Below, piece by piece: positions 3,251-32,051 of a DNA stretch of 64,000 bases; position 1 is the first letter of the stretch; each line of letters opens with the position of its first letter. The notes under the pieces were generated by a model. It did no database searches. It was not told where the DNA came from and saw only the letters and a list, made by a program, of their open reading frames with translations. The DNA is taken from positions 3,448-67,447 of the forward strand of contig JAAXTX010000003.1 in assembly GCA_013336285.1 (NCBI GenBank), written 5' to 3'. The translations under genes were made by a program, and so were the position numbers. This DNA comes from Candidatus Moraniibacteriota bacterium. Lineage in GTDB: Bacteria; Patescibacteriota; Minisyncoccia; Moranbacterales; UBA1568.

Positions 3251-3374
3251 GATAGCAGTATAATACCCTCTTTTCATAGACATTCGTATATATCGTCTTG
3301 ACATGGCATTCCCGCACGTGATATAGGGATATCGAATTAACGAAGTTCCTTTCAACAACCAATCGGAGATCAAA

Positions 3375-5364: not shown

Positions 5365-6827
5365 AACATTTTTCACGGGCTCTTCTCTGGCTTACCGTTT
5401 CGGAAATCGTTTTTAACGTGTCCGGATATCTCATTCATTCCGTCGTAGGACGGTTGCTCGGCCCGAACGACTACGGACGATACGGCCTCATAGTGAACCT
5501 CACCACGACTGTCATCATCCTGATCGGAAACGGCATTCCGACCGCGATGTCTAAATATCTTGCGGAAATTTTCGAGACGCATCCCGAGAAGATACGCGGT
5601 ATCAAACGAAAAACGATATTCCTGCAGACGACCATAATGACCGCAGTCACGGGAATATTCTTTCTGCTTTCCCGGCCTATCGCACTTCTCCTCGGCGACG
5701 ATACGCTCACGCCTCTTTTCCGGCTTTCTTCCCTTATCATCCCCTCATTCGCAGCCGCCTCGTTTTATTTTTACTACTTCACCGGGCTACATTTTTTCAG
5801 GATTCAAGCATTCCTCAAAACGACGCGCGCGCTCACCAGGATGACGTTTATCATACTTCTTGCGATGTTTTTCGGGGTGAACGGCGCCGTTTCGGGATAT
5901 ATCATTTCTCCCCTCGTGGTCTTCGGAATCGCGATCATCTGCGATATCGTCTGGACTCACAAATATTTCCCCGCCGTCGGGATCAAAAAATCTCCTGGCT
6001 TTCCCGCGAAAAAACTCCTCGACTACGCGTGGCCTCTCACGCTCTTCCTCCTTTTTTATCAGCTCATCACCTCGCTCGACCTCTTCCTCGTAAAGGCATT
6101 GCTCCACGACGACCACCAAACCGGCCTTTACAACGCCGTCATCACGGTGGGCAATATCCCGTACTATCTCTTCTACGCCCTCACCATCATCCTCCTACCT
6201 GCGATTTCCAAGACTTCGGCGAATCGTGACGAAGCGGAGACCCGCTCACTCGTGAATAAGTCGCTGCGTCTCCTCGCTCTCATATTGTTTCCGACCGTCA
6301 CTCTCTTGTCTGCATACTCAGGCCCGGTCATCCGCATGTTCTACGGACATGCCTATATCGACGCGACGACATCCATGGGCATATTCGCCATCGGCAACGG
6401 TTTTCTCACCGTATTTTACGTTCTGGCGTTCGCGATAAGCGGGGCAGGACTTGTCATGATCCCGATGTATGTTTCCGGAGCGGGACTCATCGTCTCGGCG
6501 GTTCTCAATACCCTTCTCATCCCACCCCTCGGAATCGTCGGGTCCGCCATCGCCACCACTATCGTGACGTTCGTTCTCATGATCGGGGTTCTGGCCTTTA
6601 CCGACCGGCATTTCAAAGTACGAATCCCACTCAAGCTGTGGCTCATTTCGTTCGGGTCTTCAGCTATTTTAGTCCTTCTCTCAAAGTACCTTCCGCAAGG
6701 CTCGTTTTCCTTCCTCGTTTCTGCCGCTGTGCTCTTTCTTCTGCATTTCGGCATCCTCAGATTCTTCGGGGTACTTGAAGATGCCGACATCGCACCCTTA
6801 CGGAAATTATTAGCTATCGGCAAGTGA
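5361..6827 (+). CDS. Wzx-like polysaccharide flippase (MOP superfamily polysaccharide biosynthesis protein).
   Basis: About 12-14 TM helices, and the N-terminus (MKHFSRALLWLTVSEIVFNVSGYL...GPNDYGRYG) is characteristic of Wzx/RfbX-type proteins. The ATG at 5361 overlaps the upstream stop. The longer ORF from 5271 is an out-of-operon extension. Confidence 0.7.
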   Translation: MKHFSRALLWLTVSEIVFNVSGYLIHSVVGRLLGPNDYGRYGLIVNLTTTVIILIGNGIPTAMSKYLAEIFETHPEKIRGIKRKTIFLQTTIMTAVTGIFFLLSRPIALLLGDDTLTPLFRLSSLIIPSFAAASFYFYYFTGLHFFRIQAFLKTTRALTRMTFIILLAMFFGVNGAVSGYIISPLVVFGIAIICDIVWTHKYFPAVGIKKSPGFPAKKLLDYAWPLTLFLLFYQLITSLDLFLVKALLHDDHQTGLYNAVITVGNIPYYLFYALTIILLPAISKTSANRDEAETRSLVNKSLRLLALILFPTVTLLSAYSGPVIRMFYGHAYIDATTSMGIFAIGNGFLTVFYVLAFAISGAGLVMIPMYVSGAGLIVSAVLNTLLIPPLGIVGSAIATTIVTFVLMIGVLAFTDRHFKVRIPLKLWLISFGSSAILVLLSKYLPQGSFSFLVSAAVLFLLHFGILRFFGVLEDADIAPLRKLLAIGK

Positions 6828-7566: not shown

Positions 7567-9135
7567 TCAGTAACTTGATCCGTTCCCTCCCCACCGGAAC
7601 ACGAGTACGTCGCCACGGATGAGCACGTTACTTTGTCGGTCCATATGCCTGTACATGAAATTCTCAGCATCCCTCGAAATGTAATCCGCATCGTTACCGG
7701 AAAAGATTACCCATCCGGATGAGTACTTGGACATCAGCGACTGAAGTTCCGCCGTGGTCAGTTTGACCGTCGAGAGTTCGCCTCCAAAGTCGTAGACCGG
7801 AACATGCATACCGTTCCAGTAGTAGTTCCGAAAATTCCGAGCCACAAGTATTTCGCCGTCCGATGCGTTCTTCCGAAAGAACTGGAATATTTTCCTGTAG
7901 TTTGCGGCACTTCCGGAAGCGGTCTCATGATACGTATTATTTTCCTCAAGGAAATATCCCCAATTCGGCACCAGAAGTGCCAATGTGACAGTAGTCATGC
8001 AAGCAACATGTTTCCATCTTGCCGCCAGGAGTTTCTTTGCCTCGTTAACGAGTGCGTAACCTCCGGTCGCAATAAGGATTGCGAAAAAAGACTGTGCGAA
8101 AAAGATATACTGTTGCCCTTCGTTTCGACGCCATAACCAGACAGCCATAGCAAGCGGCACTAGAAACGACGATGAGAGCCATATTGCCTCCCGCTCGCGA
8201 TCGTATTTCCTAGCCAGAGACTGCGCCCCGAATACGGCGAGAAAAACGGCTAACATGGGCGCCCCGTAGTCCCTTACGACATAACCGAAATACGAATAGT
8301 GATTGTCAAACCAGACAAGCGTCTCCAAATAGGGCTTCATTTTTCCGGGCAACGCCAAAAATACTATCGCTGTCCCAATAATCCCGGTAAGAATCGTTGC
8401 TACATATTTATTCTGATAGCCGTTACCTTTCCGCCATTCACGTAAGGCCATAACTGTGACATAGATGCCGAAAATGGGGAGGATATTTACGGTCAACTGA
8501 TGAGTCATCGCGGATAGCGCTCCAAGTAGGACAACTGGGGCAAGATATGTGAAATTGAGCCCCGTTTTCGTCCAGGAAATCCTGAGGGATTTGAGCCGTC
8601 CTTTGTATTCATGCTCGAAGAACAGGAAAAGGGCCGTTGAAAATAGCAGATAAACCGGAAAGAACATTGAGTACATGCGCAACTTCCGATCAAATTCGAT
8701 TCCAGACGATGAAACCGCGAAAAGAAAGGCGGCAAAAAGTCCGATGGTTCTGCGTCCGGAAAGTTTCCATCCCACGAGAAACATGATCACCACCGTAAGT
8801 ACGCCCCATAAGGCCGATATGGCACGTGCATTTGCCTCTGTCGGGGGAAGAAACCGGAACACCTGTACGACCTGCCATTTATAGATGTTCGCACGCTCGT
8901 CACGGGCATCGTTCTCGTTAACGACGGCGGCTTTTCCGTCGTTGAAGTCCCATGCCTTCCATTCGCCCGTCTTGAAATATCCATAAGACGAATTGATGTC
9001 CAGGAATTCGTCCGCTACAAACGAATTGTTCCCCAGTCCCCAAAAACGAAGGGTCGCTCCAAGAATCAAGATAACCGCTAACGCTACAAATTTTATCTGC
9101 CGTACGCTCTTCATATAATTCCGCAGATTAGTCAT
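7567..9135 (-). CDS. GT-C fold membrane glycosyltransferase, ArnT/PMT-like (GT39/GT83 family), paralog A.
   Basis: Membrane protein with many TM helices. The family's acidic motif sits just after TM1 (FVADEFLDINSSYGYF). Confidence 0.62.
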   Translation of the reverse strand: MTNLRNYMKSVRQIKFVALAVILILGATLRFWGLGNNSFVADEFLDINSSYGYFKTGEWKAWDFNDGKAAVVNENDARDERANIYKWQVVQVFRFLPPTEANARAISALWGVLTVVIMFLVGWKLSGRRTIGLFAAFLFAVSSSGIEFDRKLRMYSMFFPVYLLFSTALFLFFEHEYKGRLKSLRISWTKTGLNFTYLAPVVLLGALSAMTHQLTVNILPIFGIYVTVMALREWRKGNGYQNKYVATILTGIIGTAIVFLALPGKMKPYLETLVWFDNHYSYFGYVVRDYGAPMLAVFLAVFGAQSLARKYDREREAIWLSSSFLVPLAMAVWLWRRNEGQQYIFFAQSFFAILIATGGYALVNEAKKLLAARWKHVACMTTVTLALLVPNWGYFLEENNTYHETASGSAANYRKIFQFFRKNASDGEILVARNFRNYYWNGMHVPVYDFGGELSTVKLTTAELQSLMSKYSSGWVIFSGNDADYISRDAENFMYRHMDRQSNVLIRGDVLVFRWGGNGSSY

Positions 9136-9179: not shown

Positions 9180-10970
9180 TCAATTACCGACATCATCATC
9201 TCTTGCGTCGTTATTGGTGTCATTATGTCTGTTCCACCATTCGCTCCATGTATATCTCGGAAGTGCCGACGGGTTATCCTTCACCTTTCCGGATTCGAAC
9301 ACTTGTCGTCTCGCCTGTATGAATTCCGGCTTCGGTCGGAATTCTATCATGGTAAGCGTCCCGAAAGAGCGTGTCCCGATGAGATCATATTTCTCCAGAT
9401 ATTTTTTCGTTCCGTCGTCCAGATCGGACTTTGAACGGAGAATTGTGAGATATATACCTTCCTCATACAAACCATCCATACCGAATACCCCGTTCTCTAC
9501 CCCGGAACGTTCCAACAGATACTTGAGCGCTCGCCTATACTCCGGCTCACTCCACATGTATATAGGGTACCCGTTCTCTTCCGAGCGCTCCTTGAGATAT
9601 GCGACGATCATTTCCTGCAATTTGAGCGGTACACGGACGCGTTCCTTTAAAATGCGGTCCGACGGACTTTTCACAGCTTCGTACGGCGCCTTGGCAAGCT
9701 GGTCGAATCTTCTGTTCACGAAGAATAGATTGGAAGCAGCGAGAAGCATGATACCGACCACTGTTCCGAATATGACCGCTCGTTTCCAAGGAAGAAGCCT
9801 TTGAGCGGTTTCAAAAAGAAACCCGAGAAATAGAAACGGTACAGGTGCCGTGACCAGGAAAAATCGCGGCGCTATTCCGTACGAAAGAGGCAAATAGAGA
9901 ACGAAGGGGATAAGAAACCACAGTCCGGAAAGGAGGAGTAGGTCGGCTTTCCTCCGGTTACGCTCTTTCCACCAAAGAAATCCGAGCGAAAGAACGCCGA
10001 GAGTGAAAATTAAAATGGAACCAATCGCATACGGCCAACCATGCCGACAACCCGGATCGCATTCAGCTACCAGTCCGTCCGATCCGTTTTTGAACGTGAA
10101 AAAGTCACCGCCTTCGTATCCCGTCGACACGACCAGAAAACCGAGCCCGTGTTCGGAAATATCCTTTACGAGTTTCGCGGACATCGAATGTTCCCCTTTT
10201 GATGATTTGTTCGTGACCGCGGAAATAAACGCCTTCGAATTCACGCCACCGGTCACCATCTCGTTCAATGCGACAGGGACATATAACAGCATGACGATAC
10301 CTGCCGCCAGCAACCAGACTTTCGCCGTAAAACGAGGTCTTCGAATCAACAGGAATGCGAGCGTAATGGCCGGAAGGGCCACAAAAGCAAGGAAGTGCAG
10401 ATGCGTGGAGAATCCGATAGCGGACGCGGCAATTAAAAACCAGCGGCCGGCGTGTTTCGCCTCCGGTTCCACTGAACGCAAAAGTGCGTAAAATCCGAGT
10501 ATAGCGAAAAAAGGAAGCGGGTTCGGATTCCAGGCAAATCGCCCATACATGACGAGAAACGTAGAGACGGAGAACAGCGACGTAAGACCGAGAGAAAGCC
10601 ATTCCGAAAAATACCGACGCGAGAGCAGAAAAAAAAGACCGATCGCCGCGACGGAGAGAATCGGAATGAAGAAAGCCATTCCGACCGGAGTCGCCCCGAA
10701 AAGGAGTCCGCTCAGATATTGCAGGTAATAAAATCCGGGACCAAGCCGAAGGGATGTCCCGCCCGCCTTCATGCCGAGCAGCGTAAGTTCCCCCGGCCCA
10801 CCAAAGAGGGCATCATTCACGACACGGGCATCCCTCGACTGATCGAGTTCGAAATGCATCCAGTCATGAAAATGATAAAAACGAAGAAACGTTCCGATCA
10901 GGATGACAAGAATGAGCCCTAAAATGGCCAATTTTGACGTATTGGTGGCTGCTTTCTTTTCCTGTGACAT
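9180..10970 (-). CDS. GT-C fold membrane glycosyltransferase, ArnT/PMT-like, paralog B.
   Basis: TM1 is followed by HFELDQSRDARVVNDALF. The TM-rich N-terminal half and soluble C-terminal domain match the ArnT/PMT architecture. Confidence 0.62.
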   Translation of the reverse strand: MSQEKKAATNTSKLAILGLILVILIGTFLRFYHFHDWMHFELDQSRDARVVNDALFGGPGELTLLGMKAGGTSLRLGPGFYYLQYLSGLLFGATPVGMAFFIPILSVAAIGLFFLLSRRYFSEWLSLGLTSLFSVSTFLVMYGRFAWNPNPLPFFAILGFYALLRSVEPEAKHAGRWFLIAASAIGFSTHLHFLAFVALPAITLAFLLIRRPRFTAKVWLLAAGIVMLLYVPVALNEMVTGGVNSKAFISAVTNKSSKGEHSMSAKLVKDISEHGLGFLVVSTGYEGGDFFTFKNGSDGLVAECDPGCRHGWPYAIGSILIFTLGVLSLGFLWWKERNRRKADLLLLSGLWFLIPFVLYLPLSYGIAPRFFLVTAPVPFLFLGFLFETAQRLLPWKRAVIFGTVVGIMLLAASNLFFVNRRFDQLAKAPYEAVKSPSDRILKERVRVPLKLQEMIVAYLKERSEENGYPIYMWSEPEYRRALKYLLERSGVENGVFGMDGLYEEGIYLTILRSKSDLDDGTKKYLEKYDLIGTRSFGTLTMIEFRPKPEFIQARRQVFESGKVKDNPSALPRYTWSEWWNRHNDTNNDARDDDVGN

Positions 10971-11061
10971 TGTGGTACCGTATCGGATATGGAGGGCTAT
11001 TTACGGTCGGTTTTTCCTAAGAATTTTACCGCTTTCCACGAAAGAAAGCAATCGAAAACCT

Positions 11062-13326
11062 ATGTGGTTTTTTAATACGACTGATCGCAAGGAAGCTATT
11101 TCTCTGACAATTCTCGCCGTACTGTTCAACATCACCTCTTTCCTCTTCATCCTTAAATTCTTTCCACAAGCCCAACGCCTCGGGCTCATTCTCCCACGAA
11201 CCTTCTTCATAATTTCACTTCCCATTTCCGTCACTTTACTGTTCGGAGGGGTCTTCTATTTCAATCCCTTCCGATGCGTTTCTGATTGGTCATCCAAACT
11301 ACTCCTCTTTATTTTTCCGTCGGCTTTCATGTTCTTGATCGGTTGGCGTCTCGGTGAAAACGTTTCTAATTCGGTAAAACTGTTCGTTTCCTTCTATGTA
11401 TTTTTCATAAGTTCATATTATTTCACAAGGCTCACAATCAGAAAAAAAGAGTCCCTGCATTCGCCAGAAGTATACGAACCTTCGGTTTTCCAATGGATTC
11501 GCAAGCAGGGATGGCGAAGGATTTTGGCCGTTGTAGCCCTCACTGCCGTTTTTTTCATATTCGCCGTACGCGATCTCGGTTCCTACGCCGCAGTAGATGA
11601 AGCCCTCTGGCTCTATGACAGGATTCCGAAATTCTGGAATGCCGTATCCGATCTCAAGCCGGAAAAAACAGGCATAAGCGACAAGCCGGGTATCACCGTC
11701 GCCCTGGCAAGTGGATCAGGACTGTTCTATGAGGCCAATCCGAAGTCATGGAAGAGTGTCCGTGGAAGCGCATTCGATATTCCGGGGTTTTTCAGCACGT
11801 TCCGACTTCCGCTGGTCATCTTAGTCACCGTTCTCCTGCCTATTTTCTACTATCTCCTCGAACGACTTTCCGGAAAGACATCAGCCTTGTTTGCTTATTC
11901 GTTCATCTCTCTCTCGCCTGTCACGATCGGCATGGCAAAGATCATCAACCCCGATTCTCTCCTTTGGGTCTTTGCGCCACTCTCACTTTTTGCCTATTTG
12001 ACTTACATCAAGCGAAAACATCTCGGATTCCTCTTCCTATCGGGTGTCTTGCTCGGACTCGCGCTCCTCACGAAATACGTCGCCAATTTCCTGTTCATAT
12101 TCATGCTCGGCGCCATATTCCTCGAATATGCACTCCGAAGCGAGGAGGAACCCTTCCTCCCCTATCTCAAACGCTCACTCACGGCATACGCACTCTGGAC
12201 CGCTACGGCTCTCTTAACTTTTTTTCTTCTCTTTCCCAACATGTGGGTCAAACCGTGGAAAATACTCGACGCCACAATCTTTTCCCAAGCATTCGAAAAG
12301 GTCGCCTATCTCTTCATCGCCTTGTTCATAACCATACTCGTTGATAGTTTTCTGAACCGTTCCCGATTCGCCGAAGCGACCGCCGGGTTCCTGAAATCTC
12401 AGTACCGTCTTGTCGTCGGTCTGATTTGTGCTACATGGTTATTGCTCCTTATCACTGTCTGTGGGGATACTTGGGCAGATATGAAGCCGTATGACTTCAT
12501 GGATATCCTTGCCGCCCCGAAAACCATCATCAGCAGGGCTACCGTTATCGGCGTCTACATCTCTAATGCGTATCCACTTATTTTCGGCGTGACCCCCATC
12601 GTATTCGTGCTGCTTCTTGCCACTCCCTTCGTCGCGACCAAAGGACGGAATATCAGATCCGCTGCCGGAAAGTCCATGCTATTAGGAATACTGTTCATCA
12701 TGCTCTACTATGTGGCAACCTCGGTCAATAAGGTCGGCGCCATTACCCGCTATCAGATCATGCTCTTTCCGATCGCAGGTGCGGTCGCGGGGATCACGCT
12801 CGGGCTCATCGTGAAGTCTGTCGGTAATCCGTCTTCCGGGAATCGAAAGTGGACGAGATATCTCGTACCGACGATTTTTTCAATACTGGTCATTTCCGGG
12901 TTCATCACGCTCGCACGGACGCCTTTCCCCCTAAGCTACGCTTCGGCGCTCCTGCCGAACCGCTACAATCTCGACGTCAAGGATATGGGTCCTGGGAGCT
13001 ACGAGGCAGCTCAATACCTGAATTCGCTTCCGAATTCGAATGGCCTGCTGATCTGGACCGACAAAAGCGGGGTATGCAAATTTTTCAACGGAGGATGCAA
13101 AAGCAGTTTCGACTGGACCAACTACCAGAATCTTCCCTTTGACTATGTCGTCGTCTCTTCCGGGCGTGAAAGCCGCACCGACAAACGCATTATCGGAGCG
13201 ATCAACGGCGGACGGAACGATGCCATACGCTTCGACGAATATTATGGGATGACTGACCCGGTCTGGGAACTCCTCATCAACGGACGCCAGTCACATTATG
13301 TAAGGATCTATCGGTTCAAACGCTGA
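11062..13326 (+). CDS. GT-C fold membrane glycosyltransferase, ArnT/PMT-like, paralog C. Start placed at the first ATG that does not overlap the divergent gene; the longest ORF begins at 10903.
   Basis: Carries the VDEALWLYDRIPKF acidic loop motif. Its C-terminal domain is clearly homologous to paralog D (YEAAQYLNSLPNSNGLLIWTDKSGVCKFFNGGC versus YEAVQYLNSLPDADHLTVWSDYYGVCEFFRGNC). Confidence 0.6.
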   Translation: MWFFNTTDRKEAISLTILAVLFNITSFLFILKFFPQAQRLGLILPRTFFIISLPISVTLLFGGVFYFNPFRCVSDWSSKLLLFIFPSAFMFLIGWRLGENVSNSVKLFVSFYVFFISSYYFTRLTIRKKESLHSPEVYEPSVFQWIRKQGWRRILAVVALTAVFFIFAVRDLGSYAAVDEALWLYDRIPKFWNAVSDLKPEKTGISDKPGITVALASGSGLFYEANPKSWKSVRGSAFDIPGFFSTFRLPLVILVTVLLPIFYYLLERLSGKTSALFAYSFISLSPVTIGMAKIINPDSLLWVFAPLSLFAYLTYIKRKHLGFLFLSGVLLGLALLTKYVANFLFIFMLGAIFLEYALRSEEEPFLPYLKRSLTAYALWTATALLTFFLLFPNMWVKPWKILDATIFSQAFEKVAYLFIALFITILVDSFLNRSRFAEATAGFLKSQYRLVVGLICATWLLLLITVCGDTWADMKPYDFMDILAAPKTIISRATVIGVYISNAYPLIFGVTPIVFVLLLATPFVATKGRNIRSAAGKSMLLGILFIMLYYVATSVNKVGAITRYQIMLFPIAGAVAGITLGLIVKSVGNPSSGNRKWTRYLVPTIFSILVISGFITLARTPFPLSYASALLPNRYNLDVKDMGPGSYEAAQYLNSLPNSNGLLIWTDKSGVCKFFNGGCKSSFDWTNYQNLPFDYVVVSSGRESRTDKRIIGAINGGRNDAIRFDEYYGMTDPVWELLINGRQSHYVRIYRFKR

Positions 13327-13333
13327 CCTGCCT

Positions 13334-15202
13334 ATGAAGAAGCCGCTGAGAATACACGAGCATGTCGCGACCACCCTCCTTGCCGGCATTATTCTAGTCT
13401 CTCACCTCGCTCTCGGGATCCCTCACATCGGATCCTTCATCACGGCGGACGAGCATTATTGGGTCGAAGAGCGCATCCCGGACTACTTCGATGCCTGGGC
13501 AAGGCTCAAATGGAAGAAGACCCTCATAAACGACAAGCCTGGCGTCTCGCTTGCACTCGTTTCCGGTCCGGCACTCCTCTTCCATCCCGGAGGGATCCTC
13601 AGCTGCCGGACCGTGGAAGGACATACGTCTACCTGCGACCCCGCGGTCACTTCATCCCTCTATGCGTCGTTCCGGTTCCCGATTCTCGTCACGAACGCTC
13701 TGATGCTCGTCGCGATATTCTTCGCAATCCGCGCCTTTTCCGGTACGGCTGTCGCGTTCATGACGGCGATATTCGCTGCCGTCTCGCCCCAGCTCGTCGG
13801 TATGTCGCAGATCGTCAATCCGGATTCGCTGCTTTGGTCCTCGGGCGCGCTTGCGATCTTTTCGATGGCCGCTTTTCTGACGACTCTCAGGAAACGGCAT
13901 CTCATCACCGCTATCCTCTCACTCTGTTTGGCGCTCCTTTCCAAATACGTCGCGCTCATCATCATCCTGTTCCTTCCCGCGCTCCTGCTCGGCATCCATC
14001 TGTCCGACGAAGATTCAGAAAAGGTCGGACGACGCCTCCAGAGATTCCTGGGAACGGTCCTTACCTCGTTCGTCCCGCTTACGATATTCGTCCTCGCCGC
14101 ACCGGGAGTCCTCTCGTCGGACGAACGCATCATCGCGTTCCTTTCCGCCGATACCGGAAACATCTTCCTTCCCTGGGGCGCTTTCGCCGCATCCCTCGCT
14201 GTCACCGCTACGGTCATGTTCGCGAGAATTCCGAAACGTGTCGTCAGAAGGCTCGACCTGACGTTCCGCTGGTTGTTGGCAGCAACCGGAGTCATCCTCG
14301 TTTTATCCATCATGACGCTCATAGTCGCCCGATTGACTGCTCCGTCCTGGGACTACGAGATCTTCCGCCGCATTCCGTTCGACATTAAGAATATCTCCGA
14401 CGCGAAATACTATACCGATAAACGACTCACTCCGACCGATGTAGCGGCTTTGGAATTCTCACCGTTCGTCTACTCGCTTCCGGCCGCCGTGCTGATTCTC
14501 GGTACAGCCGCCCTGTTTAACCGTTCCTTGCGGGTCATGCGTGACAGAACGTCCGTCATTCCCCTTCTCATGGCACTCTTCATCGCGATAGAACTGGCAG
14601 CCTTCGCCGGATCGGGCATACGAACCACGCCGAGATACGTCCTCCTGACCCTTCCGATATTCTGCTTTCCGGCAGCCGATACGGCGGTCCGGATCGGTAG
14701 AGCGCTGCGCGGCCGTCTTCCGGAGCGATTGCGTTCCTTCACGCTCCCGGCCATCATCACACTCTCCGTCTTCGCTTCCCTTTCCGAGTTCGGAGGTAAC
14801 GCTCCATTCCATGCGAATTTCGCCAACGCGCTCCTTCCGAAGGACGACCTCACCGCGCATGCGTGGGGATACGGCGGATATGAGGCCGTACAATACCTCA
14901 ACTCGCTTCCCGATGCGGACCATCTCACCGTCTGGAGCGATTACTACGGTGTCTGCGAGTTCTTCCGCGGAAACTGTCTCACGAACTACACTTTCGACAA
15001 GGAAGTGACACGCCCCGATTACTACGTCCTCACCCGTCGCGGCATGTTCCGATATCTACCCCGATACGACGATTGGGAGCAGAAATCCGGCCTGACCGCC
15101 TACCGATACTACGACTCGGCCGATCCCGCCTGGGAACTCGATGTCACCGGAAAGAAAGATAATTTCGTGAAGGTAATCCAGGTAAAAGACGATACGCTAT
15201 GA
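13334..15202 (+). CDS. GT-C fold membrane glycosyltransferase, ArnT/PMT-like, paralog D.
   Basis: Carries the ADEHYWVEERIPDYF motif and is a tandem paralog of the upstream gene. Confidence 0.65.
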   Translation: MKKPLRIHEHVATTLLAGIILVSHLALGIPHIGSFITADEHYWVEERIPDYFDAWARLKWKKTLINDKPGVSLALVSGPALLFHPGGILSCRTVEGHTSTCDPAVTSSLYASFRFPILVTNALMLVAIFFAIRAFSGTAVAFMTAIFAAVSPQLVGMSQIVNPDSLLWSSGALAIFSMAAFLTTLRKRHLITAILSLCLALLSKYVALIIILFLPALLLGIHLSDEDSEKVGRRLQRFLGTVLTSFVPLTIFVLAAPGVLSSDERIIAFLSADTGNIFLPWGAFAASLAVTATVMFARIPKRVVRRLDLTFRWLLAATGVILVLSIMTLIVARLTAPSWDYEIFRRIPFDIKNISDAKYYTDKRLTPTDVAALEFSPFVYSLPAAVLILGTAALFNRSLRVMRDRTSVIPLLMALFIAIELAAFAGSGIRTTPRYVLLTLPIFCFPAADTAVRIGRALRGRLPERLRSFTLPAIITLSVFASLSEFGGNAPFHANFANALLPKDDLTAHAWGYGGYEAVQYLNSLPDADHLTVWSDYYGVCEFFRGNCLTNYTFDKEVTRPDYYVLTRRGMFRYLPRYDDWEQKSGLTAYRYYDSADPAWELDVTGKKDNFVKVIQVKDDTL

Positions 15203-20754: not shown

Positions 20755-20805
20755 ACGGATTTCGAACGAAAAAAGCCCATCGTAGGGCCTTATTCGTAGT
20801 ATTTC

Positions 20806-21531
20806 TTAACGATTTCTCCGAAACAGCATGATTGAGATTATAAGGATGACCAGAGCACCGATGGATCCGAAAACGATGACGAGTATTCTGCTGTTTTCCG
20901 ATTTTGCCACTGTTATCTGTGTCGACTGGTCCGAATCAATCGTCTGGGTCGGCATACCGACCGGTGGCTCGTATTCCCGGAGAAGCTCAGCGCCTGTCTG
21001 CGGATCCCGTATCAATCCGTTGTTCTGATCAAGAAGCTGCTGTGTGGACAGACTATACTTTACGTTTCCCGAAGCACAGTCAGTAAGACACGTGCCCATA
21101 TTCTCTCCCTTTTCGAACTCACAGATCCCGTTCGCGTTACATTTCACGAATTCCGCCAGATTCCCTTCAAGAAGAACCTCCCCGGTCTTGACTAAGGTCA
21201 CCTGGAAGCGATTCACGATACTGAAATATGGAACCTTGAACGGAAATTTTCCCTGTGGCATATTGAAATTCGTCGATACCGCTTTCGCCCCGCTCACATC
21301 GAACAGATCCAGACTATACGGACCGGCATGGGTCGCTCTCGAAAAATCAAAAATGGAAAAAGCGGGGTCGTCCGTCTTCGCAACAGGCTCGGTCGTAGAC
21401 GTATCAAGCATGATCCTGTCCCCCGCCCGTTCAAGATGAAAAACCCAGACCTCCTCGGCTGAAGCCTCAGAAATCGGCATCAGAGCCAAGGTGAACAACG
21501 ACATTACAAGCAGACCGAAACTGTATTTCAT
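20806..21531 (-). CDS. Secreted/surface protein with a signal peptide and a C-terminal TM anchor (hypothetical).
   Basis: N-terminal signal MKYSFGLLVMSLFTLALMPISEASA, four Cys residues and a C-terminal hydrophobic segment ILVIVFGSIGALVILIISIMLF-RRNR. Confidence 0.5.
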   Translation of the reverse strand: MKYSFGLLVMSLFTLALMPISEASAEEVWVFHLERAGDRIMLDTSTTEPVAKTDDPAFSIFDFSRATHAGPYSLDLFDVSGAKAVSTNFNMPQGKFPFKVPYFSIVNRFQVTLVKTGEVLLEGNLAEFVKCNANGICEFEKGENMGTCLTDCASGNVKYSLSTQQLLDQNNGLIRDPQTGAELLREYEPPVGMPTQTIDSDQSTQITVAKSENSRILVIVFGSIGALVILIISIMLFRRNR

Positions 21532-21544
21532 ACGGATGCCATTA

Positions 21545-22714
21545 CTATTTGCAATTGTTATAATACGTCTCCACGCGACCGCAATAATCCCGCGTCGTCG
21601 TCGCGCACCTGTTTGGCCCCCCTGCGTTCCAACAAGAAGCCACCTTTCGTATGTCGTTAAGCGAACAACCGTGCTTGGCGTTATCGTTCAAGAGCCACGC
21701 CGTACAGTTCATGTCGAGCGTGATGTCGCCCTGAATCTTTGCACACGTCTGGGCTGCGGTTCCGGTTATTCCGCACTTCGTACGATTTTCCGGCAATAGC
21801 TGACCATACCCGCAGGAACCGTGTCCATCAGTCGAAATGGATTTATTACAACCCTCACCTCCCTGAATAATGGATGTGATAATATTCGCGCTGATATGAT
21901 ACGTGTTGCTGCTAATAGCATTCGCTATGGTCGGATCCGTAGCACACCTTCCGGTCGTACAAGTTCCGGCTCCACCGACAGTCGCGAACGTGTACGGTGC
22001 GTCGGTATTCGCATCGGTGAATGGCGTCGTCGTCGTAAGCGACGTATCCGAAGCTATCGAAGCGATAGTGGCTGACTGCCCGTTTATGATGATCGTATCA
22101 CCGACTTTCAACGTCGACCGGAAAGTAGTCCCCGTCCCGGTCACCGTAGTTCCGCCCGCGACATTCGTAACCGTACCGTTTCCGACCTGCGCCACCTGTG
22201 CCCCGGTCCCCTGAACAGCCGTACCCGCCGAAGAAGTCGTATCACACTCTATTTGAAAGCCGTGTTGGATACTGAACGACGCGCTCACGCCGAGATCGGT
22301 CTTCGTCGGCAGCAGCCAGTAAATGATAAGATTGACGATCAACCAGGCGAACAGGACTATAGTGATTCCGGACAATGCGGCCCAGAGCCCCTTCTTTGCG
22401 GTCCCGATCAAGCCCTCGTTTCCGGATGAAACGATGTATAGCACGCCCATTGCCGTAATGATGGAAAGGGCGAGAAATACCATGACCGCCATGAAGTAGT
22501 CGATGATATTCTTGATGCCGACGAAGAAATGACACAGCGTACACGGGTTCTCCATGGGACCGCCGCACGGCACAAGTCCTGCAGCTTGGACGGAATGCGG
22601 AAGAAGAGAAAGAGCGAGAAGCGCGAGAGTGACACTGAATACCATCACGAACCAGAACGATTTCGGTCTGATCATATTGCTATGGAAATACCGGTTTTTT
22701 TCTCGTCCCCTCAT
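21545..22714 (-). CDS. T4SS-pilin-like (TrbC/VirB2-like, VPCG-motif) protein fused to a long Thr/Gly-rich and Cys-rich C-terminal extension. The start is possibly the internal Met at 22675.
   Basis: Signal peptide, then AGLVPCGGPMENPCTLC, then two hydrophobic helices. This matches the pilin-like proteins common in CPR genomes. About 250 further residues follow: a GT-rich stretch (TGTGTT..., TSLTTTTPF) and a domain with about 14 Cys. Confidence 0.5.
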   Translation of the reverse strand: MRGREKNRYFHSNMIRPKSFWFVMVFSVTLALLALSLLPHSVQAAGLVPCGGPMENPCTLCHFFVGIKNIIDYFMAVMVFLALSIITAMGVLYIVSSGNEGLIGTAKKGLWAALSGITIVLFAWLIVNLIIYWLLPTKTDLGVSASFSIQHGFQIECDTTSSAGTAVQGTGAQVAQVGNGTVTNVAGGTTVTGTGTTFRSTLKVGDTIIINGQSATIASIASDTSLTTTTPFTDANTDAPYTFATVGGAGTCTTGRCATDPTIANAISSNTYHISANIITSIIQGGEGCNKSISTDGHGSCGYGQLLPENRTKCGITGTAAQTCAKIQGDITLDMNCTAWLLNDNAKHGCSLNDIRKVASCWNAGGPNRCATTTRDYCGRVETYYNNCK

Positions 22715-22875
22715 CGGGAAACGATACGTGTAAGAATTCCACTATCGATTTTCATCATTATATCACGATAAACGTTCCTTTGAAAATCCGCGTTTTACAA
22801 TCAGGTACTTTCGACATCGATCCGCTGAACACCGACAGTATCGTCTCTATTCATTTCGCGAAAACCCGTACGATT

Positions 22876-26534: not shown

Positions 26535-28994
26535 TTACGCGAGGTCGGCTTCGGCAATCGTCACACTCCCCCCTTCGATCACTTCACCGGCAATCACTTT
26601 CCTGACGATCACATCCTCTATATGATCCTCGATATACCGGTTGAGGGATCTTGCGCCGAACACCGGTTCGTATCCCTGTCGGACGATGGCGGCGGCGACT
26701 CCCTCCGTGAAGGCGACCGAGATGTTCTTCTGTTTCTTGATGCGGTCCGAGAGACTCGTGAGCTTGATCTGAACCACCTGTGAAAGTTCCCCTCCGAGAA
26801 GCGGAGCGAAACAGACGATGCCGTCGAAACGGTTCAGGAATTCCGTACGGAACGTACCCTTCTGTTCTATGTCCGTCAAAAGTTTCTTCCGGAGATCGTC
26901 CTGCGTGATACCTGCGGAAACGAGTTCGGCGATGAGTCCGGAACTCGCGTTCGAGGTCGCGATGATTATTGACTTCCGGAAATTTATCTTCTTTCCGAAC
27001 GCATCGGTCACGAAGCCTTCGTCAAGAATCTGAAGGAAGATGTCGAGCACTTTCGGATATGCCTTCTCGATTTCGTCGAGCAACAGTACCGAGAACGGAT
27101 GTTCCTTCATAACGCCGGACAGGCGTCCCTCCTCGCCGGTAACATTCGATCCGAGCATGCGATCAGCGGCATCCGATGATTGGAATTCGCTCATATCGAG
27201 ACGGACCATACGGTTCTCGTCACCAAAATACGCCTCAGCGAGCGCCTTGGCCGTCTCGGTCTTTCCGACACCGGTCGGTCCAAGAAAGAGAAACGAACCC
27301 AGCGGTCGATTCGGATTGCCGAACCCGGCCCTGGCACGCCGGAGCGCTTCGGCGACCTGCCTGACCGCTTCGTCCTGACCCACGACGCGCAAATGGAGTA
27401 TTTCCTCGAGCTTAAGAAGTCTCTCTTTCTCGCTCTCACCGAGCGCGCCGATCGGCACACCGGTCTTCAGCGAGACAAACGCCATGACGGTCCGCGGCGT
27501 TACGTATGGTCCGTCCGGCTCAACCTGCCAATTCTGCATCGTTTCCTGCGCAAGGTCGATCGCTTTTTCCGGATACGGAATATCCCATTCGTACTGTCCG
27601 GAAATTTCGACGATCGACTGGAGCGCTTTCCAGGAAAAAATCACGCGATTCCGTTCCTCCGGAGCGAAAACGTTGAGCAGGATACGGGCCGTGTCCTCCG
27701 GTCCGGGCTCACGGAGATAGACCGCTTCGAGAAACTTCAACGTCGGCTCGTCATCATGGGCGAGGGCGTTGTATCCGGACGCGCTCATCATGCCGATAAC
27801 CCGGAATGACGGTAAAGCGAGAAATTCCGTAAAGGCACTGGAAAGGTCGATCCGACCGCTCTTCCCGTTCAGGAAAGAATCAAGGTTTTCAATCACGAGT
27901 ACGACATTCCCAGCGTTGGCAGCCTCATAAAAAAGAGAGCGGATGAAATTTTCGGGATCCTCACCACGATTCCCCGCATCACCGACCGCTATGCTCAAAT
28001 CGAAAGAGAGGAATCTCAGCTGTTCGAATCCCGGAAGATCACCCTCGCGAATTTTTCTGGCCAATGCGTGCACGAACGTCTTCTTGCCTATACCAGCGTC
28101 ACCTACCAACACGAAACTGTTCTGACCAGGCCTACCGAGCAAAAGAGTCGTAACTCGGAGCTCGTCATCGCGACCGAACAGGTGTAATTTCGAATATTCC
28201 GAGAAATCCGCTTTCGAGATGTCAGTGGCGTATCTGTCGAGATGCACCGTGAAGCCGAACTGCCATCCGCGACCGAACGGGACGGTCTTCCGAAGATTCT
28301 CCCAGGAGAGCAATTGCAGACGTTTCGCGGCACGTTCAGCCGCGAACGCCTCATAGGTTACGATGTCGTCGAAATCCTTGTCACTCATGTTAAGATCCGC
28401 GAGACGATCACGAAACGCCTCATCGCTCGTCCAATCCGAGGCGCGAAAGTCCTGCACAGCGATTCCCAGACGTCCAAGCACCCGTGGAAACCACTTCATT
28501 CGAAACAGTTCGCCACGGGACCGGGGGAGAAACGATTTCGGTTGCCGCGAGGCGAACGAGACCAACTGCACAAGAAGCAGGACAAATGAAAACGCCAGAA
28601 AAAGCCATTCTCCACCTTTCATGTGCCCAAACGGCGATCTGACAAAAAACCAGAATAAGGCCGGGACCGTCACCAACCACCCGACCAGGAATCCGAATCC
28701 GAAAAGCGCGAGAAACGCGATGGATACCGATCCGAAAACAAGTACGAAACTTCGAACAATGACACCCATCACCCGCGAAAAGACATTCATTGCGAACCGG
28801 TTCAACGACTTTCCGATGTCGAGCCCCAACCAGTTCTTCGGGGAACTATCGCGTTTCCACGGCGAAAAAAAAGTGGGGACCAATTCTCGGAAATTGAAAA
28901 TGTGAAGGAAATATCTAAAGAGATTTTCCCACGACGAAACGAGTGAGAGGAAACCCTCCGAGTAAATCCAGATGAGAAAAGAAAACGGAAACAT
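26535..28994 (-). CDS. Membrane-anchored ClpA/ClpB-family AAA+ ATPase with a degenerate D1 domain and an intact D2.
   Basis: The N-terminal ~150 aa contain four TM helices. The D1 region aligns to ClpB NBD1, but Walker A reads GDAGIGKK and Walker B reads VLVIENLD (DE replaced by EN). D2 has GPTGVGKT, LLLDEIEKA and sensor-2 GARSLNR. A ClpA-like linker is present (AIDLAQE, LEEILHLRVVGQDEAV). No IGF/IGL ClpP loop is seen. Confidence 0.7.
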   Translation of the reverse strand: MFPFSFLIWIYSEGFLSLVSSWENLFRYFLHIFNFRELVPTFFSPWKRDSSPKNWLGLDIGKSLNRFAMNVFSRVMGVIVRSFVLVFGSVSIAFLALFGFGFLVGWLVTVPALFWFFVRSPFGHMKGGEWLFLAFSFVLLLVQLVSFASRQPKSFLPRSRGELFRMKWFPRVLGRLGIAVQDFRASDWTSDEAFRDRLADLNMSDKDFDDIVTYEAFAAERAAKRLQLLSWENLRKTVPFGRGWQFGFTVHLDRYATDISKADFSEYSKLHLFGRDDELRVTTLLLGRPGQNSFVLVGDAGIGKKTFVHALARKIREGDLPGFEQLRFLSFDLSIAVGDAGNRGEDPENFIRSLFYEAANAGNVVLVIENLDSFLNGKSGRIDLSSAFTEFLALPSFRVIGMMSASGYNALAHDDEPTLKFLEAVYLREPGPEDTARILLNVFAPEERNRVIFSWKALQSIVEISGQYEWDIPYPEKAIDLAQETMQNWQVEPDGPYVTPRTVMAFVSLKTGVPIGALGESEKERLLKLEEILHLRVVGQDEAVRQVAEALRRARAGFGNPNRPLGSFLFLGPTGVGKTETAKALAEAYFGDENRMVRLDMSEFQSSDAADRMLGSNVTGEEGRLSGVMKEHPFSVLLLDEIEKAYPKVLDIFLQILDEGFVTDAFGKKINFRKSIIIATSNASSGLIAELVSAGITQDDLRKKLLTDIEQKGTFRTEFLNRFDGIVCFAPLLGGELSQVVQIKLTSLSDRIKKQKNISVAFTEGVAAAIVRQGYEPVFGARSLNRYIEDHIEDVIVRKVIAGEVIEGGSVTIAEADLA

Positions 28995-29091: not shown

Positions 29092-29120
29092 TTGAAAAGA
29101 CGCCGCCTTTCGGCTATACT
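29092..29120 (+). promoter_or_regulatory. Sigma70-like promoter for paralog E, giving a leaderless or near-leaderless mRNA.
   Basis: TTGAAA, a 17-nt spacer, then TATACT, with the ATG of the gene 8 nt after the -10. The TTG of the -35 element is what the ORF track reports as its start at 29092. Confidence 0.5.
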
Positions 29121-29127
29121 GGGAAAC

Positions 29128-30888
29128 ATGGAACATGCTACTTCCACACCTGTCCGGGAGCGGTTATTTTCTTCCGCTATGGCAGGAATAGTCACGCTGG
29201 GACTTATCTCCTACGCCTCCGCTGTTGCGGGTATTTTTTTCCATGCGACAGTCCTCATTTTTTCCATTCCCATCATCACCGTGACGCTCATCCTGCTTTT
29301 CAGATGGATCCTTCGCGAAACCATTTCGACAAGAATGATATTCACATGTCTGATCGCTCTTTCCTTCGCGCTTCTCCTGCCGGTTGAACCGTCTGTCTTT
29401 TCGGGTCGCGACCAAGGATCCATCGCCGAGGCCGCGATCGAACTCGCCCATAACGGTACGCTTCATTTTTCCTCCCCGGCCGTAACGACATTCTCCGACA
29501 TTTACGGTCCGGGAAAAGCACTGAATTTCCCCGGCTTCTATTATGATGACAACGGGAAACTGACGACTCAGTTTCCGATCGGCTCCATCTCTTTTCTCGC
29601 AACATTCGTGTCCCTTTTCGGGATCACCGGCCTGCTCGTCGCCAATGGCGTACTGCTTATAGCATCGCTGTCGACCCTCTACGTCCTCGTTCGGACGCTT
29701 GCGAATGAACGTTACGCGGTAGGCACATTTTTCGCCGGTGCCCTTTCCTTCCTACCCTTGTGGTTCTCAAAGTTCACCTTGTCCGAGAATCTCTCCCTGT
29801 TCCTTTTTCTCTTCCTTTCGCTGACCCTCGTCAGATTCCTTCGGAAGCCCGATAGCGCGACATTCTTTGTTTCTTTTTTTCTGGCCATTTTTTTCGCAGC
29901 GACGCGTTTCGAGGGACTTTTTTCACTCGCCGTCTCAATCGTTATACTTTTCCTTACGCCATCTGGACGAAAATTCTCCGAAAAGGACCGACTGATGAGA
30001 CGTATCGTTCCGGTCATCATATTGATCGCAGCCCTATTTATAAACGTGTTTTCCTCGACTCCCATGTACCGAAGCATCGGCAAGGCACTCCTGCAAGACG
30101 GGTTCGCTACGGAGCACCCTATCGGTACGAACGGTTTCGCATCCACCGTCGCTCTATGGAACCTATTCATTCCGTACGGCCTTTTCCTTCCGTTCGTCCT
30201 CGGAATTATCTCTCTTGTCCTGCTGCTCTTCCGAAAACGATTTCTCGCCCTCATTCCGGCTATGCTCGCCATTCCGACCTTTCTCTTTCTCATCGATCCC
30301 ACCATCACTCCGGACCATCCGTGGATGCTTCGGCGGTTCCTATTCTCGCTTTGGCCGACTTTTTTCGTATCCGTTCCGGTCGCTTCTTACCTATTCATAA
30401 AAGACAACAAGAGTCGCGTCATTCGGTCATTACCGATCGCCTTGTTCGTACTTATCGTCATCTTTTCACTTCCGGCGACTACTCGTTCATTTTCCGTGTC
30501 CGAGAATCGCGGACTTATCAACGAGACCTCGACGCTTACACGCCGGTTCGGTAATCGCGATCTCCTCCTTATCGATCGGGAGGCGACTGGAGACCCATAC
30601 ACCATCCCGGCTGGTCCGATACGGTTCCTATACGGGAAAAATGCGGCCTACTTTTTCAATCCTTCAGATTATGAGAAGATTCCAAAGGATCGCTATGATC
30701 ACATCTATCTCCTGACCCCGATAGGAAAAATCCCCTCACAGTCAGATATTCGTGCCACCGTCGGAGAAGTCTCAATCATTCCGTTCTCCTTTCAACGGCT
30801 GGAACGGCTTCCGCTCTCCGTTGCCAGACTGCCGAAACTCGAGACTGTCAGCCAAGACGCCGCTCTCGTAGAACTCAAACCATTATGA
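29128..30888 (+). CDS. GT-C fold membrane glycosyltransferase, ArnT/PMT-like, paralog E.
   Basis: At least 12 TM helices, and the acidic loop after TM1 is SGRDQGSIAEAAIELAHNGTL. It has a C-terminal soluble domain. Confidence 0.55.
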   Translation: MEHATSTPVRERLFSSAMAGIVTLGLISYASAVAGIFFHATVLIFSIPIITVTLILLFRWILRETISTRMIFTCLIALSFALLLPVEPSVFSGRDQGSIAEAAIELAHNGTLHFSSPAVTTFSDIYGPGKALNFPGFYYDDNGKLTTQFPIGSISFLATFVSLFGITGLLVANGVLLIASLSTLYVLVRTLANERYAVGTFFAGALSFLPLWFSKFTLSENLSLFLFLFLSLTLVRFLRKPDSATFFVSFFLAIFFAATRFEGLFSLAVSIVILFLTPSGRKFSEKDRLMRRIVPVIILIAALFINVFSSTPMYRSIGKALLQDGFATEHPIGTNGFASTVALWNLFIPYGLFLPFVLGIISLVLLLFRKRFLALIPAMLAIPTFLFLIDPTITPDHPWMLRRFLFSLWPTFFVSVPVASYLFIKDNKSRVIRSLPIALFVLIVIFSLPATTRSFSVSENRGLINETSTLTRRFGNRDLLLIDREATGDPYTIPAGPIRFLYGKNAAYFFNPSDYEKIPKDRYDHIYLLTPIGKIPSQSDIRATVGEVSIIPFSFQRLERLPLSVARLPKLETVSQDAALVELKPL

Positions 30889-32051
30889 TCCTTTTCGATG
30901 CCGCATCAATCCTGCCCGGGACCCTTAGGAAACGTTTTCTTATTTTTCAGGCTGTTCTTCTGTTCTTATTCATGGGAGTAGCTTTTTACTTTGGCTTTTC
31001 ACTCCTCTTTCCTTCGCAGGTCTTCACTTATTCATTTAAGAACCCCGATACAGCAAAAAACACACTCGAAATTCCGACCGGAATCGAGTCAGGCGGATCG
31101 AATTTAATAAAGGGGAAAGTGAAGTCGGGCGATAAACTTAACACCTATGCGGGAACCTCGGGAAATTTTTCCTCAGTGAATGTCCGGGTTGGCCTGCGAA
31201 AAGATTCAGACACCCCCAATGATATCAGGATATCTCTCAGACGCTCCTTTCGGTCGTTCTTCTATCCGAACGGTCCGGATGCCGTATCGCCGCCGGAACA
31301 GCGCATACTCGCGATAGACGGCTCACCATATCTGTTCACACAAGAAAAAATATCACCTTTCATAAGTGACGCGGCGGCCTTATCTTGGGCCCCGAAAGAA
31401 AAGGTGCTTCCCAGCAAGAGTGAGATTCTCTCCATCTTCCCACCACAGGATACCATTATGGGATTCCGCCCCGGAACGCTCCTCTCCGACGCACAAGGGG
31501 TCTATGTGATCGACGGTGATAGCAAGGCTCATCCTATCGGTAGCACGTCCGCATTCGAAACTCTCGGATTCCACTGGAACGATGTGCACGCGATCAGTGA
31601 AGAGGAACTCGGGATTCACAAACGAGGAAAGATATTACTTTTCGGTGCGGCGCAACCCGATGGGTCGGTATTCCTCGACCGAACGACTATGCGCTATTTC
31701 CTGATCGAAAAAGGTATGAAAATCCCCGTCGTGAACAAGGACCGTCTCGATACCCTTCTGGGCGTCACGACTCCCATCGAAGCAACGAATGCCGCTCTCG
31801 GAATATCCGCCTCCTGCCATCTGACGCGAAGTTTCATTCTGTTTCAGACGGTATATTCCTGCGACATTCCGATACAGGATCTTCGAGATCTTCCCGGTGG
31901 CAGTTTCGAGTTGTCACTCGACACGGATCGCGAAGTTCATCTCTCCGATCTCTCGCTCAATTTCCGAACAAGTCCGGACAGACAGAATTTCTCACTCTTC
32001 CTCCGTCAATTGAAGGAACGGTTCCAGACGGTCTACGGAAACAAGCGATAG
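30885..32051 (+). CDS. Hypothetical membrane-anchored protein (N-terminal TM, ~350-aa extracytoplasmic domain).
   Basis: ATGA overlap with the upstream GT-C gene. One N-terminal TM helix. Confidence 0.45.
   Translation: MILFDAASILPGTLRKRFLIFQAVLLFLFMGVAFYFGFSLLFPSQVFTYSFKNPDTAKNTLEIPTGIESGGSNLIKGKVKSGDKLNTYAGTSGNFSSVNVRVGLRKDSDTPNDIRISLRRSFRSFFYPNGPDAVSPPEQRILAIDGSPYLFTQEKISPFISDAAALSWAPKEKVLPSKSEILSIFPPQDTIMGFRPGTLLSDAQGVYVIDGDSKAHPIGSTSAFETLGFHWNDVHAISEEELGIHKRGKILLFGAAQPDGSVFLDRTTMRYFLIEKGMKIPVVNKDRLDTLLGVTTPIEATNAALGISASCHLTRSFILFQTVYSCDIPIQDLRDLPGGSFELSLDTDREVHLSDLSLNFRTSPDRQNFSLFLRQLKERFQTVYGNKR

Follow-up and report, generated by a model that had tools for sequence, protein, structure and literature searches.

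A stretch of 64,000 nucleotides from a Candidatus Moraniibacteriota bacterium (contig JAAXTX010000003.1; this whole stretch is referred to as the window) carries on its minus strand a gene that fuses a VirB2-like pilin module to a Cys-rich, lysozyme-like domain, followed by a gene for a second, predicted secreted protein, here called the partner. We consider it reasonably probable, at roughly 0.6, that the fusion protein and its partner form a two-gene module of a Patescibacterial type IV secretion system (T4SS) or pilus, in which a pilin-tethered peptidoglycan glycosidase would play a role analogous to that of VirB1. An earlier note on this DNA, made from its letters alone, had described two open reading frames (ORFs) here; both were confirmed on the minus strand, with lengths of 389 and 241 residues, and are separated by 13 nt. 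The two genes and the parts of the fusion gene are as follows.

21545–22714, minus strand: fusion gene, 389 residues from the first ATG, an ORF with an identical independent protein (P0001) and a conserved architecture, encoding from the N- to the C-terminus a signal peptide, a pilin-like hairpin, a linker, a tail-fibre-like module and a GH23-like domain
22583–22714, minus strand: N-terminal leader and predicted Sec signal peptide, residues 1–44 (hydrophobic helix 19–36 in the AlphaFold2 (AF2) model; site position conserved in the alignment)
22295–22582, minus strand: VirB2/T4SS_pilin-like module, residues 45–140 (GLVPCG..PCTLCH motif, two long helices, short loop, PF18895, AF2)
22181–22294, minus strand: post-helix beta-hairpin, residues 141–157, then Thr/Gly/Ala-rich linker, residues 158–178 (AF2, alignment)
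21980–22180, minus strand: beta module resembling the N-terminus of phage tail fibres, residues 179–245 (phrog_1980 match; lineage-specific insert)
21548–21967, minus strand: Cys-rich GH23/SLT-like domain, residues 250–389, with 12 Cys (AF2, Foldseek, profile comparisons)
21854–21856, minus strand: codon of Glu287, placed by hhalign opposite the catalytic Glu in the 'ES' motif of SLT
20806–21531, minus strand: partner gene, 241 residues

The identity of the Cys-rich domain is indicated by structure and profile comparisons. Its AF2 model has a predicted local distance difference test (pLDDT) score of about 87–96 over residues 250–389, and a Foldseek search of the PDB placed lytic transglycosylases and GH23 proteins exclusively at the top of the list, with probabilities of up to 1.0 and E-values of 0.06–0.5. 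These matches include Slt of P. aeruginosa (5ohu, probability 1.0), a phage lytic transglycosylase, MltF, MltD, Cj0843, a Ralstonia GH23 chitinase, and phiKZ gp144. In BFVD, the top matches were likewise SLT/LT_GEWL proteins (best E-value 3.7e-3, with a TM-score of 0.52 on a 145-residue SLT protein). An exhaustive hidden Markov model (HMM) search for the domain among 1.84 billion representatives returned only 81 proteins; the weakest 25 library matches of the Cys-rich profile carry Pfam SLT in 21 cases (best E-value 3.7e-36) and T4SS_pilin in nine. Alignment of this profile by hhalign with 22 of these 25 weak matches, a set that owes its selection to the same profile, gave a probability of 99.3% and superimposed GEGC on 'ES', GSCGYGQ on 'GLMQ', and SCWNAG on 'AYNxG'. 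The domain motifs GGEGC, GSCGYGQ, and SCWNAG thereby correspond to the three SLT motifs, with E287 at the catalytic position. Both E287 and G286 are invariant in all 56 representatives of the domain (clusters at 50% identity that bear it at E<1e-10), Q305 is nearly so, and the Ser of 'ES' is replaced by Gly in most family members. Furthermore, one member of the same subfamily (P0006) matches SLT directly, at a sub-threshold E-value of 0.0067.

Some resemblance to the i-type lysozymes and destabilase was also detected. A profile of 18 family members searched against the PDB gave as its best matches the i-type lysozymes 2dqa, 3ab6, and 4pj2 together with a GH24 muramidase, all weak (E-values from 0.046 to 6.5), and the i-type enzymes share with the domain a small size, a very high Cys content, a 'SCGY.Q' motif, and the spacing of several Cys. 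However, the HMM alignment shifts the Glu by one position, Pfam Destabilase is not matched, the Asp of the i-type 'S.DG' is absent in several family members, which read 'SPAGACGY', and the structure searches favor GH23, with no i-type lysozyme among the Foldseek PDB matches. A search of the PDB with the single sequence yielded nothing useful, and direct Pfam and NCBIfam scans of the fusion protein and the partner returned only a sub-threshold T4SS_pilin match, the GroES and cytochrome CbsA matches in these scans being rejected as noise. It is concluded from the sequence comparisons and the model that residues 250–389 belong to a branch of the GH23/SLT lysozyme-like superfamily that is divergent and presumably rich in disulfides. 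The domain is probably an active enzyme and, from its sequence, may be either a lytic transglycosylase or a hydrolytic muramidase. The description of this region as a Cys-rich domain stands, but its count of about 14 Cys does not, as 12 lie between residues 252 and 388 and 16 occur in the whole protein, the remaining four (C50, C58, C61, and C157) being located in the pilin part.

The N-terminal part of the fusion protein had been likened to the small T4SS-type pilins of Candidate Phyla Radiation (CPR) genomes, and this is borne out through its relatives, although its own score is below threshold. The motif AAGLVPCGGPMENPCTLCH occupies residues 44–62 (GLVPCG from residue 46, CTLCH from residue 58), and cleavage by signal peptidase would take place after SVQA and before AGLVPCG, at an A-x-A-type site. 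The AF2 model contains a leader helix at residues 19–36 and two long helices at 59–95 and 100–134, with pLDDT values of about 80, in agreement with the signal peptide and two transmembrane helices proposed earlier. The loop SSGNEGLIGTAKKG between the long helices is short and basic in the model and in the family alignment and includes an invariant K107, so that the hallmarks of this type of pilin, a cleavable signal peptide and a pair of hydrophobic helices with a short basic loop between them, are all predicted. PF18895 matches 25 of 27 aligned relatives at E<0.01 (best 1e-8), a relative (P0037) reaches the cutoff with 26.7 bits, and an HMM of family residues 44–140 retrieves small PF18895-annotated array pilins in other genomes at E-values of 1e-11 to 1e-19. 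Because of these three results, homology of this module to the CPR T4SS_pilin/VirB2-like family is regarded as secure through the relatives. The two long helices are followed by a conserved beta-hairpin (AF2 strands 143–148 and 152–157) that ends at C157, a near-invariant residue conserved in at least 90% of the family alignment, and the C50/C58/C61/C157 quartet could staple the N-terminus to this post-helix hairpin.

Several relatives carry further domains on the other side of the pilin module. P0010, P0011, and P0012 have Cys-rich extensions of 200–400 residues or InlB B-repeats (Flg_new_2, three copies) after the signal peptide and ahead of the pilin module, and they bear a C-terminal lysozyme-like domain as well. 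As these proteins carry passengers before the pilin module too, passenger domains appear to be possible at both ends of the hairpin.

The fusion itself is a constant feature of the family. In 52 of the 56 representatives, the Cys-rich domain lies in the same polypeptide as a pilin module, while the remaining four appear to be N-terminally truncated fragments. An independent Logan assembly also contains a counterpart of the fusion protein (P0001, locus L008) that is 100% identical, although it is called from M24 with a length of 366 residues. An unnoticed frameshift or a two-gene artefact, which had been raised as an explanation for the extension, is ruled out by this identical protein together with the retention of the fusion in the 52 representatives; the extension of about 250 residues (residues ~140–389) does belong to the same gene. 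In the family alignment, the homologues begin at the equivalent of M14 ('MIRSKSF' or 'MIRPKSF'), so that the gene probably starts at M14 (position 22675) and the true product probably has 376 residues.

The family is narrow, comprising about 56 clusters among the 1.84 billion representatives. Among the species representatives of GTDB, which do not include the genome of the window itself, the Cys-rich form was found at 11 loci, nine of which are labelled Moranbacteria or Moraniibacteriota. The other two, L014 (DATMYW010000059.1, 'Candidatus Fimivivens') and L017 (JAKQLT010000052.1, 'Omnitrophota'), both bear a Moranbacteria-type pair, and L014 shares the ClpB-like/GT4/epimerase synteny of the window; these two contigs may well be mis-binned rather than products of horizontal transfer.

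Between the pilin module and the enzyme-like domain, residues 158–250 consist of 26% Thr and 15% Gly, and this region had been read as a low-complexity stretch. That reading holds for the linker at residues 158–178, a true low-complexity Thr/Gly/Ala segment whose length and sequence vary across relatives, but not for most of the remainder. The extension was correctly described as Thr/Gly-rich and Cys-rich in composition, but it is built of three parts rather than two. Residues 179–245 match positions 6–74 of the 449 positions of phrog_1980 (tail fiber) with an E-value of 3.7e-9, and they also match further tail-fibre PHROGs (among them 1591, 24607, 28473, and 2712), mostly at the N-terminal ends of these profiles. 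Eight shuffled sequences and the reversed sequence gave a best E-value of 0.05, with unrelated families and no tail family, and the insert of P0002, a relative with 70% identity, matches phrog_1980 independently at 9.4e-9; the match is therefore not compositional. The family alignment places this module in the lineage of the window and in P0002 only, and AF2 confidence is low across it (pLDDT 40–70). With tblastn, the insert had no match in 50,697 phage genomes, and the relationship is visible at the profile level only. Compared with the N-terminal modules of phage tail fibres, with whose first ~70 residues it aligns, the module differs in its internal position within a bacterial membrane protein that lacks the remainder of a fibre.

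The partner is identical to HGA31_00900 of NCBI, from a Candidatus Moranbacteria metagenome-assembled genome (P0117), and its AF2 model, built from 26 sequences, has a mean pLDDT of 81.7. It consists of a signal peptide, a beta-sandwich at residues 26–124 with pLDDT values above 90, a Cys motif, a conserved segment (YS..T..LD..G.I.DP.TG), a disordered Pro-rich linker, and a C-terminal transmembrane helix at residues 214–240 with a basic tail. A secreted protein with a C-terminal anchor, as the adjacent gene had been described, is thus what the model predicts. The Cys motif CNANGICEFEKGENMGTCLTDC at residues 131–152 follows the invariant pattern C-N-x-N-x-I-C-E-x-E-x-x-E-x-x-x-x-C-x-x-D-C. Neither Pfam nor NCBIfam gave a match for the partner, and Foldseek returned from the PDB only generic beta-sandwiches (lipoxygenase PLAT, Epf adhesin, and a glucuronidase Ig-like domain) at E-values of at least 0.055, with no lysozyme inhibitor and no T4SS component among the matches. 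A partner homologue directly follows the fusion gene in all 12 distinct genomes with downstream sequence.

Two short sites border the pair and are listed below; both are consensus matches only, and the number of such sites does not exceed that in shuffled controls.

22757–22786, minus strand: promoter-like site with an extended −10 element (TG-n-TATAAT) upstream of the fusion gene, 10/12 consensus matches
20772–20791, minus strand: terminator-like hairpin with a T-run, 15 nt past the partner stop codon, consensus match

Because the partner is always adjacent, with a promoter-like site upstream of the pair and a terminator-like hairpin after it, the fusion gene and the partner gene look like a self-contained bicistronic unit.

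The surroundings of the pair in relatives connect it to T4SS genes. In UBA2282 (L006/L015) and GW2011_GWA2_39_41 (L019), the pair follows TrbL_3, PrgI, a TraC-like gene, VirB4, and three more ORFs, near dnaA. In two further genomes (L004 and L005) it heads arrays of four to six T4SS_pilin paralogues, and in L017 and L019 one further pilin gene follows the partner. In L006 and L019, the DNA that separates the pilin-lysozyme pair from the VirB4 cluster also encodes a protein of 900–919 residues without a Pfam match (L006:7203-9962 and L019:6726-9431), and in both genomes a conserved ORF of 382 residues follows the partner; these two proteins are candidate components of the Moranbacteria T4SS.

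A positional orthologue of the fusion gene bears on the function of the C-terminal domain. Locus L007 has the same flanks as the window (an epimerase gene upstream; GT2, UDP-glucose dehydrogenase, and GT4 genes downstream), but the pilin in it is fused to SLT_3 instead of the Cys-rich domain (P0017, L007:10001-11305), and the neighbouring gene encodes a 174-residue protein unrelated to the partner. Upstream of its pilin module, P0017 also has a weak GDSL/SGNH match (E = 0.0037), with IGDSI, GSND, and DGLHP motifs in the alignment, and this protein may combine a de-O-acetylase and a glycosidase on a single pilin scaffold. In addition, P0019 is a pilin with a canonical SLT domain. As far as can be judged from these sequences, lysozyme-like domains of different kinds have replaced one another on a common pilin scaffold, and this argues for muralytic activity as the function under selection.

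A mechanism consistent with these features can be outlined. The fusion protein would be exported by the Sec pathway and its leader cleaved, and the hairpin would be inserted N-out/C-out as in VirB2, with the short basic loop in the cytoplasm; given this topology, the whole C-terminal extension would lie outside the membrane. The twelve conserved Cys of the enzyme domain could form up to six disulfides. The Thr/Gly linker, aided in the window lineage only by the tail-fibre-like beta module, would space the enzyme from the membrane, while the pilin module, serving as an anchor or as a minor 'headed' subunit, would bring it to the site of T4SS or pilus assembly. At this site, the GH23-like domain would cut the glycan strands of peptidoglycan by means of E287. 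The wall that is cut could be the producer's own, which is the task of VirB1 in making an opening for the apparatus, or that of the epibiont's host cell. It is also possible that the enzyme is released later; VirB1 is processed to VirB1*, and the TrbC pilin is trimmed at its C-terminus. In a bolder version, the headed minor pilin would place the enzyme on the T4SS pilus of the epibiont and make this pilus an enzymatic drill for the wall of the host, with the partner as a chaperone or inhibitor. We regard this version as speculative and unlikely, but if true, it would explain why an epibiotic life requires pilins and T4SS although relaxases and a recognisable VirB1 are absent.

Several observations weigh against a T4SS-associated, pilin-tethered glycosidase. 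The window contains no VirB4, VirB6/TrbL, PrgI, coupling protein, type IV pilus machinery, second pilin, or other VPCG motif, and in its clade an envelope-glycan locus surrounds the pair. PF18895 scores the fusion protein at 17.0 bits (E = 0.006, residues 67–130), below the curated cutoff of 26.6, and Pfam gives no SLT, SLT_2, SLT_3, or Destabilase match for it at E≤1. The Foldseek E-values are modest (0.004–0.5), partly since the query was the full-length multi-domain model, and the hhalign E-value is optimistic, being inflated by an SLT set that was chosen through weak matches to the same profile. Finally, a 250-residue passenger on every subunit is probably incompatible with a homopolymeric filament of the VirB2 type. 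The composition of the locus would lead one to think of a housekeeping autolysin, in which the pilin-like hairpin merely anchors a wall-remodelling glycosidase that serves the envelope-glycan genes (in growth, in division, or in making room for surface polymers) and has no T4SS role. The absence of T4SS genes from the window is in line with this idea, a GH23-like enzyme fits it equally well, and the pair lies after the ClpB-like, GT4, GT4, and epimerase genes in the window as well as in six or more relatives. However, the anchor is specifically a T4SS_pilin homologue kept in nearly all representatives of the domain, VirB4 clusters or pilin arrays are the direct neighbours of this pair in other Moranbacteria, the downstream glycan-gene synteny is not conserved even inside the clade, and the pair has promoter-like and terminator-like sites of its own. 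An autolysin of this kind is judged unlikely.

The strict adjacency of the two genes, with their narrow gap in the window, would also suit an effector-immunity pair, in which the lysozyme-like domain serves against bacteria as a toxin that degrades the host wall and is delivered or displayed via the pilin module and the beta-sandwich partner is its cognate inhibitor. Proteinaceous lysozyme inhibitors are beta-rich proteins, and the partner is predicted to be extracytoplasmic and membrane-anchored, that is, in the same compartment as the enzyme. A muramidase effector with an immunity protein has a precedent in Tse3-Tsi3 (PMC3792639). The fold search, however, retrieved generic beta-sandwiches and no lysozyme inhibitor, and the unrelated neighbour of the SLT_3-bearing protein in L007 is equally compatible with cognate specificity and with the partner having no inhibitor role; the effector-immunity explanation appears rather improbable. 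Less probable still is the proposal, close to that of the earlier note, of an O-glycosylated, adhesin-like fibre or decorated pilus tip, in which the Thr-rich linker is modified by the neighbouring GT-C and GT4 enzymes and the head binds without being an enzyme. A Thr/Gly-rich linker is indeed present, the window holds three GT-C genes of the PMT_2 type as well as several GT4 genes, modules like the tail-fibre-like one are employed by receptor-binding fibres, and relatives bear other passengers such as InlB B-repeats. On the other hand, the head has all three SLT motifs, an invariant Glu at the catalytic position, and GH23-type fold matches, which tells against an adhesin-like head; the Thr-rich region is for the most part taken up by a folded module that only one relative shares; and the glycosyltransferase synteny is clade-specific. 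Such a glycosylated adhesin is considered very unlikely, although a 'decorated pilus' is possible in the sense that the decoration would be an enzyme.

The glycosylation genes themselves do flank the pair in the window, as had been reported: its surroundings include genes for Wzy_C, a flippase, three PMT_2 GT-C proteins, GT4, GT2, UDP-glucose dehydrogenase, an epimerase, Bac_transf, and a membrane ClpB-like AAA+ protein, along with housekeeping genes. The functional link that had been drawn between these genes and the pair, however, finds no support, as the synteny is confined to one clade, no glycosyltransferases adjoin the pair where it lies beside VirB4 clusters or pilin arrays in other genomes, and the pair is bounded by its own promoter-like and terminator-like sites. 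The upstream block of ClpB-like, GT4, GT4, and epimerase genes is syntenic in L001, L009, L010, L014, L016, and the P0005 contig, whereas the downstream genes differ.

Other genes of the window merit description in their own right. The very large envelope-glycan locus includes Wzy_C (1859–3535), a flippase (5271–6827), many GT4 genes, and, at 9180–15202, three consecutive membrane proteins of 596, 807, and 622 residues, each with a match to PMT_2 (GT-C, dolichyl-phosphate-mannose-protein mannosyltransferase-like). At 26535–28994 on the minus strand lies a gene for an 819-residue ATPase of the ClpB/AAA_2 type, whose first ~170 residues resemble several transmembrane helices; it is kept just upstream of the glycosyltransferase/epimerase/fusion block in at least six related genomes. 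A bpMoxR AAA+ ATPase, with the MoxR domain of MoxR-vWA-beta-propeller ternary systems (E = 2.3e-33), is encoded at 59112–60389 on the minus strand. In addition, ORFs of 598, 388, 299, 335, and 522 residues at 29092–32051 (plus strand), 43319–45165 (minus strand), and 7567–9135 (minus strand) have no Pfam match at E≤1e-4, and homologues of the 598- and 388-residue ORFs (586–590 and 385–390 residues, respectively) adjoin the ClpB-like gene in related contigs.

The fusion protein exhibits considerable similarities to known systems, but there are also clear differences. With the VirB2/TrbC-type pilins of Patescibacteria (PF18895; PMC12102498, PMC10633639) it shares the signal peptide, the two long hydrophobic helices, and the short basic loop, and its relatives occur near pilin arrays or VirB4 clusters. 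Unlike typical array pilins of 90–150 residues, however, it has a C-terminal passenger of 250 residues; it also falls below the Pfam cutoff, has a conserved Cys quartet, and has no T4SS genes around it in the window. With VirB1 and the VirB1-like hydrolases of monoderms (TraG of pIP501, PrgK, TcpG, and the CD419/TrsG profiles) it has in common a GH23/SLT-type domain that is predicted to be membrane-tethered and extracytoplasmic, and an association with a VirB4-type locus that is seen in two relatives but not in the window. It differs from them in that it is anchored by a pilin module and not by one transmembrane helix, in that there is no CHAP or M23 second domain, and in that the catalytic domain is a divergent 12-Cys subfamily missed by the Pfam SLT models. 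The closest architectures are those of T4SS_pilin with SLT_3 (PF18895 and PF18896) or with SLT (PF01464), in which a pilin hairpin is likewise followed by a lysozyme-like domain, as in P0014, P0017, and P0019; the catalytic domain of the fusion protein matches neither at Pfam thresholds, and this protein further differs in its obligate partner and in the tail-fibre-like extra of the window lineage.

The combination of a pilin with a lysozyme-like domain is thus already implicit in Pfam, where T4SS_pilin co-occurs with SLT_3 or SLT in relatives. A literature search found no description of a VirB2-lysozyme fusion, of PF18895/PF18896, or of Moranbacteria pilin fusions. What is new is a Cys-rich, GH23-like subfamily found solely in fusion with a pilin, together with its obligate partner, the tail-fibre-like insert, and the positional domain swap. 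Because the family is narrow and the architecture implicit in Pfam, the finding refines rather than overturns the known picture.

Patescibacteria depend on a T4SS with VirB2-like pilins to grow on their hosts; in the one species open to genetic work, epibiotic growth requires both the pilins and the T4SS (PMC10633639; see PMC12857230 for a review). VirB2-like pilins occur in most genomes, while most of them have no recognisable VirB1, which was found in few genomes in a 2025 survey of Patescibacterial T4SS (PMC12102498). A lysozyme-like domain that is linked to a pilin in Moranbacteria and is invisible to standard HMMs is therefore a testable candidate for the missing T4SS glycosidase, and the recognition of the Cys-rich GH23-like subfamily is a gain for annotation. 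In addition, the passengers of the relatives, namely SLT, SLT_3, possibly SGNH, and InlB repeats, at either end of the hairpin, hint that pilin modules may serve as display scaffolds for wall-active enzymes.

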